NCBI RefSeq assembly: GCF_053078305.1
Contig: NZ_CP166879.1
Reading direction: 5' to 3' (one strand)
Length of the DNA stretch: 64,000 nt
This document shows positions 2,920 through 43,721 of the stretch, piece after piece (the stretch's first letter is position 1; every line of letters begins with the position of its first letter). The position numbers were made by a program, and so were the translations under genes. The notes beneath the pieces were generated by a model that was given only the letters and a program-made list of their open reading frames with translations, ran no database searches and was not told the DNA's origin.

Positions 2920-3072
2920 CGCTTATTCTCAGGGCGGGGCGAAATTCCCCACCGGCGGTAAATCAACTCAGTTGAAAGCCCGCGAGCGCTTTGGGTGCGA
3001 ACTCAAAGGACAGCAGATCCGGTGTAATTCCGGGGCCGACGGTTAGAGTCCGGATGGGAGAGAGTAACGATT
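2920..3072 (+). promoter_or_regulatory. FMN riboswitch (RFN element) in the ribB leader
   Basis: Conserved RFN blocks visible: agggcggggcgaaattccccaccggcggtaaa ... cccgcgagcgc ... ggacagcagatccggtgtaattccggggccgacggttagagtccggatgggagag, about 100 nt upstream of the ribB ATG. Confidence 0.85.
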
Positions 3073-36760: not shown

Positions 36761-36864
36761 ACGTTCCTCCTTTATATGAACTCACCGGAGCAGGCTCCGG
36801 TGAGGTGTTGTGAACTTAAGTCTGGACGAAATGCCCGAAAACGAAAGTTTGAGGCGTAAAAAGC

Positions 36865-41398: not shown

Positions 41399-42133
41399 GT
41401 GGGTAATAATTTAATGCAGACGGACCTTTCCGTCTGGGGTATGTATCAGCACGCTGATATTGTCGTTAAGTGCGTGATGATTGGGCTTATTTTGGCCTCC
41501 GTAGTCACTTGGGCAATCTTCTTCAGTAAGAGCGTAGAGTTCTTCAATCAGAAGCGTCGCCTTAAGCGCGAGCAGCAACTGCTGGCTGAAGCGCGTTCCT
41601 TAAACCAGGCCAACGATATCGCCGCTGATTTTGGTAGCAAAAGCTTAAGCCTGCATTTGCTCAATGAAGCGCAGAATGAGCTGGAACTGTCAGAAGGCAG
41701 CGACGATAACGAAGGTATTAAAGAACGTACCAGCTTCCGTCTGGAGCGTCGGGTCGCCGCAGTAGGTCGTCAAATGGGCCGCGGTAACGGCTATCTGGCA
41801 ACCATCGGCGCGATTTCGCCGTTCGTTGGTCTGTTTGGTACGGTCTGGGGCATCATGAACAGCTTTATTGGTATCGCGCAAACGCAGACTACTAACCTGG
41901 CAGTCGTTGCGCCGGGTATCGCAGAAGCTCTGTTAGCAACGGCAATCGGTCTGGTGGCAGCGATTCCGGCGGTCGTTATCTATAACGTATTCGCGCGTCA
42001 GATTGGCGGCTTTAAAGCGATGCTGGGTGATGTCGCAGCGCAGGTATTGTTGCTGCAAAGCCGTGACCTGGATCTGGAAGCCAGCGCCGCTGCGCATCCG
42101 GTTCGTGTCGCACAAAAATTACGTGCAGGATAA
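41399..42133 (+). CDS. exbB: TonB-system energiser ExbB
   Basis: 244 aa; MotA/TolQ/ExbB family. Confidence 0.95.
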   Translation: MGNNLMQTDLSVWGMYQHADIVVKCVMIGLILASVVTWAIFFSKSVEFFNQKRRLKREQQLLAEARSLNQANDIAADFGSKSLSLHLLNEAQNELELSEGSDDNEGIKERTSFRLERRVAAVGRQMGRGNGYLATIGAISPFVGLFGTVWGIMNSFIGIAQTQTTNLAVVAPGIAEALLATAIGLVAAIPAVVIYNVFARQIGGFKAMLGDVAAQVLLLQSRDLDLEASAAAHPVRVAQKLRAG

Positions 42134-42139
42134 TGTCCG

Positions 42140-42565
42140 ATGGCAATGCATCTTAACGAAAACCTCGACGATAACGGCGAAATGCATGATATCAACGTGA
42201 CGCCGTTTATCGACGTGATGTTGGTTCTGCTGATTATCTTTATGGTGGCGGCACCGTTAGCGACGGTAGATGTGAAGGTTAACTTGCCTGCTTCTACCAG
42301 CACGCCGCAGCCGCGCCCGGAAAAACCGGTTTATCTGTCGGTGAAGGCAGACAACTCGATGTTTATCGGTAACGATCCGGTCACCGATGAAACAATGATT
42401 ACGGCGTTGAATGCGTTAACCGAAGGTAAGAAAGACACCACCATCTTCTTCCGTGCAGATAAGACCGTCGACTATGAGATGTTGATGAAGGTAATGGATA
42501 AGCTGCATCAGGCGGGTTACCTGAAGATAGGTCTGGTCGGCGAAGAAACCGCCAAAGCGAAGTAA
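42140..42565 (+). CDS. exbD: TonB-system energiser ExbD
   Basis: 141 aa; single TM helix then periplasmic domain. Confidence 0.95.
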   Translation: MAMHLNENLDDNGEMHDINVTPFIDVMLVLLIIFMVAAPLATVDVKVNLPASTSTPQPRPEKPVYLSVKADNSMFIGNDPVTDETMITALNALTEGKKDTTIFFRADKTVDYEMLMKVMDKLHQAGYLKIGLVGEETAKAK

Positions 42566-42574
42566 AGTAGAATT

Positions 42575-42786
42575 GCCTGATGCGCTACGCTCATCAGGCC
42601 TACAAAATCTATTGCAACATGTTGAATCTTCGTGCGTTTGTAGGCCGGATAAGGCGTTCACGCCGCATCCGGCATTAGGTGCTCAATGCCTGATGCGCTA
42701 CGCTTATCAGGCCTACAAAATCTATTGCAACATGTTGAATCTTCATGCGTTTGTAGGCGGATAAGGCGTTTTCGCCACATCAGGTA
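42575..42786. repeat. REP/BIME array: two tandem copies of a ~113 bp unit, each with paired REP palindromes
   Basis: gcctgatgcgctacgctcatcaggcctacaaaatctattgcaacatgttgaatcttc... occurs at 42575 and again almost identically at 42688; units include tgtaggccggataaggcg-type REP sequences. Confidence 0.8.
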
Positions 42787-42803
42787 AGAGTGAATTCACA
42801 ATG

Positions 42804-42839
42804 ATGCCCGGTTGCTTTTCACAACCGGGCATTTTTTTA
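42804..42839 (+). terminator. Intrinsic terminator after exbBD and the REP array
   Basis: Hairpin gcccggttg-N8-caaccgggc followed by TTTTTTT; the T tract overlaps the yghA stop on the other strand. Confidence 0.6.
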
Positions 42840-43721
42840 ACCTAAATGCTCGCCGCCGCACACACCGTGCACTTCTGCGGTGACGTAGCTCGACTCCTGA
42901 CTTGCCAGATAAACATATAAAGGGGCCAGTTCCGCCGGTTGCCCCGCACGTTTCATCGGCGTTTGCTGACCAAACTGCGGGATCTTATCCTGCGTTTGTC
43001 CGCCGGAAATTTGTAGTGCCGTCCAGATAGGGCCTGGCGCGACAATATTCACCCGAATACCTTTCTCCGCGACCTGTTTTGCCAGGCCACGGCTGTAGTT
43101 CAGAATCGCCGCCTTCGTAGCCGCATAGTCCAGTAAATGCGGACTTGGCTGGTATGCCTGGATTGACGAAGTGGTGATGATACTTGCACCTTTCGGTAGC
43201 AGGGGGATCGCTTCCTGGGTTAGCCAGAACAGCGCGAAAACGTTAATGGCAAAGGTCTTTTGAAACTGTTCGCTGGTGAGGTCTGCAATATCCGGAATGG
43301 CAACCTGTTTCCCGGCGACCAGCGCCATAATATCCAGCCCGCCTAAGGCCTTATGCGCTTCGTGAACTAGCGAACGGGCAAATTTCTCATCGCTTAAATC
43401 GCCTGGCAGCAGAACGGCTTTGCGTCCGCATTCTTCAATGATCTTTTTCACATCCTGAGCGTCTTCTTCTTCCACGGGAAGATAACTGATCGCCACGTCA
43501 GCCCCTTCACGCGCGTAAGCGATGGCGGCAGCGCGACCGATTCCGGAATCGCCCCCTGTCACCAGGGCTTTACGATCTTTCAGGCGACCGCTACCAACAT
43601 AGGTTTTCTCGCCGCAATCCGGTACCGGTGTCATCTTCGCCTGGATGCCTGGCGTCGGTTGTTTCTGTTTGGGATATTCACCAGTGTAATACTGCGTGGT
43701 CGGGTCTTTTAAATGAGACAT
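42837..43721 (-). CDS. yghA: Short-chain dehydrogenase/reductase YghA
   Basis: 294 aa; Rossmann motif [11 protein letters not shown]. Confidence 0.85.

Follow-up and report, generated by a model that had tools for sequence, protein, structure and literature searches.

A REP is an imperfect palindrome, 20–40 nt long, that has the conserved tetranucleotide GTAG/CTAC at its foot (PMC3333891). In the scheme of Ton-Hoang et al., BIME-1 consists of z1 and y with a long linker L between them, often with an IHF site, and occurs singly; BIME-2 consists of z2 and y in tandem copies with short linkers; and an atypical BIME is a multi-copy chimera of such motifs (PMC3333891). REP222 of K-12, as described by Murashko et al., comprises REP222a-d plus REPv222e (PMC10100675). 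The transcripts of exbB, exbD and yghA were among the REP-containing transcripts that rose upon ATP depletion in array experiments, and a K-12 Northern with a probe for the REP region displayed full-length yghA RNA (~1,000 nt, half-life 2.8 min) as well as an intermediate of ~300 nt (half-life 6.2 min); both were stabilised by fluoride, by inactivation of RNase E and by removal of the degradosome scaffold (PMC10100675). REP325 has been described as a partial terminator and mRNA stabiliser, and a REP situated between convergent genes is associated with higher expression of the two, with a wide variance (preprint 10.64898/2026.03.23.713779).

Here we analyse a tandem array downstream of exbD in a 64-kb stretch of DNA (the window, meaning the whole stretch analysed), following up an earlier note made from its sequence. 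The window spacer is colinear with that of K-12 MG1655, with one base different within the array, and REP222a-d and REPv222e are named for exbBD and yghA (PMC10100675), which identifies the element as REP222. We consider it very probable that it is this already catalogued, non-coding member of the E. coli REP/BIME family in the exbD-yghA spacer, and that the array forms the 3' tail of the two convergent transcripts, where its hairpins block exonucleases and modestly tune the mRNAs.

Structure of the exbD-yghA spacer

The DNA of the window is that of E. coli (closest record ETEC6335, 99.6–99.7%), with exbBD on the plus strand and yghA on the minus strand converging on a 271-bp spacer (Table 1). 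Two direct repeats, at 42574-42686 and 42687-42799, follow each other with a period of 113. A repeat search of the window aligned 42574-42645 with 42687-42758 (72 nt, 97% identity, spacing 113) and 42646-42672 with 42758-42784 (85% identity, spacing 112, a 1-nt deletion in copy 2), and the 28-nt core of the linker occurred exactly twice in the 64-kb window, compared with no occurrence in 100 dinucleotide-preserving shuffles. Tandem Repeats Finder (minimum score 30) returned no rows for the array; both copies are plain from direct reading and the repeat search. The earlier note had described two near-identical units of ~113 bp at 42575-42786, built of paired REP palindromes and lying downstream of exbD and upstream of a terminator hairpin, a description that was borne out in each of these respects. 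The terminal Y REPs differ between the copies at ~5–6 positions in 35 nt, as against 2 in 72 over the preceding stretch; since the terminal Y is much more diverged than the rest, the copies have not drifted apart in a simple, uniform manner. The first REP starts 8 nt past the exbD stop codon, with a single A at 42566 before the left flank motif. Together with its flank motifs the element occupies 42567-42799, exactly the 233 bp that are missing from the empty allele as judged by allele alignment.

Each unit consists of a short Z-type REP, an L-type linker and an inverted Y REP, and a 12-nt linker joins the two (Table 1). The unit 2 Z copy at 42688-42716 reads GCCTGATGCGCTACGCTTATCAGGCCTAC and is an exact match to the short Z REP published in PMC11208160, while the unit 1 Y is 1–2 loop positions off the Y listed there. 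A joint resembling that between the units is found in strain SCPM-O-B-8794 (TTCGGTGCTTAA), and the right flank motif shares its final GCAC with those at rhlE-ybiA and avtA-ysaA. The signature TCTATTGCAACATGTTGA of the 36-nt linker is locus-specific, as megablast of 5,426 genomes located it at no other place. Two SNP variants of the unit 1 linker are common, CAACAGGTTG (loci L006 and L010) and CTACAATATC (L007 and L008), one of which alters the centre of the 10-bp palindrome, inside the IHF-like core. The predicted RNA fold of the spacer has an energy of -114.2 kcal/mol (z = -7.35 against shuffled controls), and that of the other strand -112.1 kcal/mol (z = -8.15).

Table 1. Positions of genes, repeat elements and predicted features at the exbD-yghA locus, numbered along the window
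Feature	Position	Strand	Remarks
exbB	41399-42133	+	ORF list, matching E. coli records
exbD CDS	42140-42565	+	TAA stop 42563-42565; ORF list and annotated exbD in matching E. coli records
Left flank motif GTAGAAT	42567-42573	+	Absent from empty allele; related to GCAAAAY flank of other BIME-1 loci (gldA-yijF, rhlE-ybiA, avtA-ysaA)
63-aa ORF	42573-42764	+	TTG start; all REP and linker sequence
Unit 1 short Z-type REP (TGCCTGATGCGCTACGCTCATCAGGCCTAC)	42574-42603	+	One base off published short Z REP (C42592 for T)
IS621 target ATCAGGCCTAC in unit 1 Z	42593-42603	+	11-nt target
Unit 1 36-nt L-type linker (AAAATCTATTGCAACATGTTGAATCTTCGTGCGTTT)	42604-42639	+	Contains 10-bp palindrome CAACATGTTG; homologous to L linkers of single-copy BIME-1 elements
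Unit 1 IHF-like core ATTCAACATGTTG	42615-42627	-	1 mismatch to WATCAANNNNTTR; position homologous to ATTCAATATATTG in canonical L linkers
Unit 1 intact inverted Y REP (GTAGGCCGGATAAGGCGTTCACGCCGCATCCGGCA)	42640-42674	+	Sequence reading, repeat comparison
naRNA4 (RF02564) match, Y-short linker-Z junction	42643-42713	+	68.1 bits, gathering score 59.5
12-nt short linker TTAGGTGCTCAA	42675-42686	+	S-type joint of units 1 and 2; aligned to naRNA4 model linker
Unit 2 short Z-type REP (…CGCTTATCAGGCCTAC)	42687-42716	+	IS621 insertion site in 181 genomes
Unit 2 L-type linker	42717-42752	+	Single G-to-A difference from unit 1 linker
Unit 2 IHF-like core ATTCAACATGTTG	42728-42740	-	Consensus match
Unit 2 degenerate inverted Y REP (GTAGGC-GGATAAGGCGTTTTCGCCACATCAGGTA)	42753-42786	+	1-nt deletion, several substitutions
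Right flank motif AGAGTGAATTCAC	42787-42799	+	Orthologous to AGAGTTAAATGCAC in sister species; absent from empty allele
Terminator-like hairpin and T-run, exbBD transcripts	42803-42838 (hairpin 42803-42833)	+	12 pairs, 7 G-C; invariant in all E. coli alleles examined
yghA CDS	42837-43721	-	Convergent with exbD; stop codon overlaps T-run; ORF list and matching records

An open frame of 63 codons is present within the array. That it encodes a small protein is hardly conceivable: the frame has a TTG start and is made wholly of REP and linker, matched no Pfam family, stops after 14–51 codons in the one-unit alleles and in every other Escherichia species examined, and is missing in 29% of genomes. 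Its dismissal as non-coding in the earlier note is thus well founded. As to annotation of the neighbouring gene, RefSeq/PGAP calls the exbB product (WP_000527844.1) a 'tol-pal system-associated acyl-CoA thioesterase' (L002, L003, L005 and L067), which looks like a name misapplied to the TonB-system protein ExbB.

Copy number among E. coli strains

Copy number was surveyed in 5,426 complete E. coli genomes, with allele classes set by strict E-value cut-offs, passed only by full-length alignments free of interruption. Query coverage was unfit for counting units: one subject unit serves both query units, a one-unit allele showed 97% coverage, and other BIME loci reached more than 80% coverage of the junction query. 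Linker megablast matches per genome, for their part, overestimate the one-unit alleles because common unit 1 SNPs break the 28-nt word; in ~1,060 two-unit genomes only one linker was detectable by megablast, presumably through SNPs like those described above.

The two-unit allele was found in 3,464 genomes (64%), the one-unit allele in 93 (1.7%) and the empty junction (…GCGAAATAAA/AATGATGCCCGG…) in 1,574 (29%), while 181 had an IS621 junction and about 114, by subtraction, were unclassified. Copy number therefore does vary across strains, between 0, 1 and 2 units, with spacers of 38, 158 and 271 bp, respectively. There were no three-unit genomes, the 44-nt locus-specific linker never occurring more than twice per genome among the 5,426. 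The two-unit allele has the same unit-specific differences in K-12, DH1, O157:H7 and O145:H28. Since the empty allele loses exactly the REPs plus both flank motifs, the element behaves as a discrete insertion/excision unit. In the one-unit alleles, sequence of unit 1 is combined with that of unit 2, and the crossover falls in one of four intervals: all variants are those of unit 2 in L002, the switch lies between the Z and linker markers in L069, after the linker marker in L009 and L070, and inside the Y REP in L068. These four intervals indicate at least four independent deletions via recombination between the repeats. The two-unit variant of strain MB19 (L071) is longer by 6 bp and has a long Z2-type REP (TGCCTGATGCGACGCTGCGCGTCTTATCAGGCCTAC) in place of the second short Z, with TTAGGTGCACAA as its short linker; the long Z2 suggests conversion from another REP.

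The array is also a target of IS621, an IS110-family bridge-RNA recombinase element. In strain D97-1 (L004 850-1200, L067 1000-2570) IS621 lies in the second Z REP (…CGCTTATCAGGCCT/IS621/CTACAAAATC…), equivalent to 42706-42716 of the window, and it is this junction that recurs in the 181 genomes. The insertion site matches the natural IS621 target with its CT core (PMC11208160). The first Z REP has the same 11-nt target, which is unused in D97-1, the sole insertion examined on both sides.

Other species and the age of the doubling

Species-representative genomes were scanned with a degenerate pattern of the exbD 3' end, which gave 51 loci. E. albertii, E. whittamii and strain E69, whose exbBD are 93–96% identical, have one Z-L-Y unit each, at the same site and with orthologous flanks, and the E. 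whittamii linker has the same locus signature. Strain SCPM-O-B-8794 (94%) also has two units, but its array is a different one: the linker is truncated and a long Z2 occupies the second position. In Escherichia sp. MOD1-EC7003 (L063, ~1750-1800; ~95%) the junction is empty (GCGAAATAAAAATGATGCCCGG) and identical to that of the E. coli loci L003 and L005, including the AAA lysine codon. Its flanking genes are 4–6% diverged from E. coli, and other equally distant lineages have the site filled; the identical junction reflects either an ancestral state, or recurrent precise excision, or allele exchange between species. No REP was found at the site in the loci of Citrobacter, Klebsiella, Kluyvera and other genera that were viewed in full; one Citrobacter locus (L042) has a single REP-like motif. 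In Salmonella enterica subsp. diarizonae (L050, first ~100 nt past exbD) there is a single Y-like inverted REP (GTAGGCCGGGTAAGGCGAAGCCGCTACCCGGC) with a T-run directly after it, and this REP may itself act as the exbD terminator.

These comparisons are evidence that occupation of the site dates back to before the Escherichia species diverged. On its right side, unit 2 of E. coli has a flank orthologous to the one that follows the single unit in the other species. Identity between the Z-L segments of the two E. coli units is 97%, and because these segments are closer to each other than either is to its orthologs, the doubling, or a later homogenisation, took place in the E. coli lineage after the split. 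The doubling is accordingly specific to the E. coli lineage, and it had taken place before the allele reached K-12, DH1, O157:H7, O145:H28 and thousands of other strains. The idea of a recent duplication put forward in the earlier note must therefore be divided: it fails at the level of strains, the same unit-specific differences being shared by the two-unit allele of 3,464 genomes, but it holds in so far as the doubling is younger than the split from the sister species, which have one unit.

These data bear on whether the array has a function at all. It could be neutral selfish DNA, harmless between a stop codon and a terminator, with a copy number that drifts by recombination. Its presence, absence and copy number are polymorphic in the 5,426 genomes, deletions recur, the last Y REP is in decay, 181 genomes tolerate an insertion of IS621, and REP types swap by apparent gene conversion (L071); moreover, TnpA-REP cleaves and recombines BIMEs in vitro (PMC3333891). 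On the other hand, the site is occupied across Escherichia species with flanking genes 4–7% different, and the RNA demonstrably forms a stabilised intermediate. We therefore regard neutrality as a possibility of some weight, though not as the account we would favour, and it should be underlined that an array of neutral origin may still affect RNA decay measurably.

Possible roles at the DNA level and in translation

The array might also act mainly as DNA. The L linkers would then serve as IHF sites with a spacing of 113 bp, as in a doubled RIB/RIP, and gyrase would act at the Y REPs, so that positive supercoiling between exbBD and yghA, which are indeed convergent, is absorbed. Each linker keeps ATTCAA-N4-TTG where canonical L linkers have their IHF core, the L linkers of BIME-1 frequently have an IHF site (PMC3333891), and gyrase prefers to cleave Y REPs, in BIME-2 elements (PMC6379681). 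However, the core has CATG here, and CCTG in a common allele, in place of the AT-rich TATA of canonical L linkers; one of the two Y REPs is degenerate; and 29% of genomes are without the element. Nor did gyrase binding, which the earlier note had envisaged alongside IHF, find support at this locus, as the gyrase Topo-seq supplements list no exbD or yghA entry. Taken together, a role mainly at the DNA level seems unlikely, whereas the linkers, with a 12-of-13 consensus match at the homologous position, are plausible putative IHF sites.

The position of the first REP raises the question of whether it lowers ExbD synthesis, a hairpin 8 nt past the stop codon causing ribosome stalling, mRNA cleavage and tmRNA rescue. 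According to Liang et al. (2015), as related in PMC12306157, ribosomes stall and translation goes down when a REP lies less than 16 nt from a stop codon, and the distance from the exbD stop codon to the REP at 42574 is well within this range. Yet where the element is absent, as in the empty allele, the stem of the terminator hairpin (from 42803) would begin ~4 nt past the stop, so that every allele has structure near the stop codon, and stalling would coexist with a role as RNA stabiliser, not replace it. We find it distinctly doubtful as an account of the array.

The match to naRNA4

The Rfam model naRNA4 scores above its gathering threshold at the junction of the two units (Table 1), and this match is absent from the one-unit, empty and single-unit alleles, the junction existing only where two units abut. 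As naRNA4 is a Y-linker-Z2 two-hairpin RNA from REP325 (PMC4550694), the junction could be seen as a naRNA4-type HU-binding RNA that helps to condense the chromosome. Such a role is very improbable. The model matches another REP pair in the window, at 53686-53762 on the minus strand (81.4 bits, REP tails at 53683-53696 and 53752-53765), as well as the unrelated array of strain SCPM-O-B-8794 (93.1 bits); the Z hairpin is of the short type, with a 7-nt deletion needed to fit the model; no promoter-like site was found in 42566-42836; and REP325/naRNA4 do not measurably compact the nucleoid, as stated in a preprint from the originating laboratory (10.64898/2026.03.23.713779). The model fires on any Y-linker-Z REP pair and the junction match is generic, which is a useful caution for genome annotation.

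Two other Rfam matches in the window passed the gathering thresholds: an FMN riboswitch at 2921-3069 on the plus strand (120.9 bits) and the ES173 sRNA at 36799-36862 on the minus strand (99 bits). The latter is also present in the loci of E. albertii (L017 1474-1537) and E. whittamii (L051 12937-13000).

Termination and RNA decay

The array is followed by a terminator-like hairpin with a T-run for the exbBD transcripts (Table 1). On the minus strand CAUUGUGAAUUC comes after the hairpin, and no terminator was called there. At 42832-42839 the yghA stop codon (complement 42837-42839) and the T-run of the exbD terminator overlap, and on the minus strand the hairpin begins 5 nt past this stop. Both convergent genes thus have strong RNA structure within 15 nt of their stop codons. 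The earlier assumption that the terminator is shared probably needs correcting: the structure was called terminator-like only for the exbD strand, and yghA transcripts have been reported with REPs at the 3' end (PMC10100675).

The explanation that we prefer is the one based on RNA decay. The exbBD and yghA transcripts would both carry the array as a 3' tail, its stable REP hairpins would impede 3'-to-5' exonucleases and thereby give rise to a stable intermediate, and this intermediate would be cleared by RNase E, RhlB and PNPase. In this way the array would modestly tune the abundance of both the exbBD and yghA mRNAs; for exbBD, we infer the effect from the behaviour of the exbB and exbD transcripts in array experiments and from the position of the element. 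IHF binding at the linkers and ribosome stalling at the exbD stop are plausible candidates for secondary effects. In K-12 it has been shown, by published Northerns of yghA, that REP-bearing yghA RNA exists and decays via RNase E and the degradosome in an ATP-dependent way, the exbB and exbD transcripts behaving likewise in array experiments, and a role in mRNA 3'-end stability, which the earlier note had proposed, is accordingly backed by the published decay experiments on REP222 (PMC10100675). Against this explanation, terminal REPs show genome-wide no association with longer mRNA half-lives (preprint 10.64898/2026.03.23.713779), and the element is absent from 29% of the 5,426 genomes, which means that any function is dispensable. 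Strains of the B2 cluster have more exbB and exbD transcripts, not fewer, and the whole iron-uptake regulon is up in B2 (PMC10580932), so that exbBD levels in B2 neither support nor refute a REP effect. At least one ST131 strain is without the locus-specific linker.

The element as such is already known, and its 3'-UTR hairpins, degradosome-dependent intermediate, copy-number polymorphism and targeting by IS621 are textbook for the family. The gain is modest and consists of an exact allele census in 5,426 genomes, the recurrent loss of units and the long occupation of the site; in addition, the natural alleles with 0, 1 and 2 units would be convenient isogenic material for measuring how REPs affect flanking expression. 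A bolder proposal, which we hold to be improbable, is that these alleles form a natural regulatory polymorphism. Two phased IHF-like sites 113 bp apart and the Y-S-Z junction, present only in the two-unit form, would then set the expression of exbBD (TonB energisation, iron uptake) and of yghA apart from that of the empty allele; the empty allele is that of the large U13A-type group, probably including ST131, as one ST131 strain is without the linker; and precise excision by the REP-associated transposase would explain the identical empty junction in two Escherichia species.

Comparison with known REP elements

The four palindromes of the array each end in CTAC or begin with GTAG (42574-42603, 42640-42674, 42687-42716 and 42753-42786), as expected of REPs; among the matches listed, they recur in 10–46 places per genome, and the element lies between two stop codons. 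Each 113-bp unit has the BIME-1 layout, Z(short)-L-inverted Y, and aligns with single-copy elements at three other loci. A search with the linker plus REP tails gave ~10 related places per genome with 76–84% identity, and the elements at gldA-yijF, rhlE-ybiA and avtA-ysaA are single-copy; in them the short Z is the same, the linker is homologous and ~34 nt long (…CTCTGCAATATATTGAATTTGCATGC…), and the Y is inverted. The whole array reads Z(short)-L-Y-S-Z(short)-L-Y. From this order of motifs we class the 113-bp unit as a BIME-1-type module and the two units in tandem, with the S-type linker between them, as an atypical BIME. That the short Z corresponds to z1 is inferred from its co-occurrence with L linkers and from the long Z2 carried by the naRNA4 model. 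We also considered the Z REP to be z2 and the array to be a BIME-2, a classification that was dropped given the 7-nt deletion needed by the naRNA4 model and the same short Z in the single-copy Z-L-Y relatives.

In comparison with BIME-1 (RIB/RIP), the likeness is therefore one of single units: whole-unit identity to the elements at gldA-yijF, rhlE-ybiA and avtA-ysaA is 77–84%, the flanks are similar, and the IHF-like core is at the homologous position. BIME-1 elements occur singly, however, whereas REP222 has two tandem units and a linker signature of its own; a single copy is found in the 93 one-unit E. coli alleles, E. albertii, E. whittamii and strain E69, but not in the window or the 3,464 two-unit genomes. 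With BIME-2 elements such as REP325 it shares tandem units, the Y-short linker-Z junction, a copy number that varies between strains (0, 1 or 2 units) and the Rfam naRNA4 match. It differs from them in having a short Z instead of z2, a long L-type linker between the REP tails and never more than two units per genome.

REP222 resembles the REP stabilisers in mRNA 3' ends (REP325 in yjdMN) with respect to its site in the 3' UTR, its strong hairpins on both strands and its degradosome-dependent stable intermediate. Unlike the classical stabilisers, it is probably common to two convergent transcripts, and it lies upstream of a separate exbBD terminator hairpin. Finally, REP222 of K-12 (EcoCyc REP annotation) has the same locus, the same 271-bp spacer and the same order of REPs as the array described here; nothing of substance differs, the window coming from another strain.
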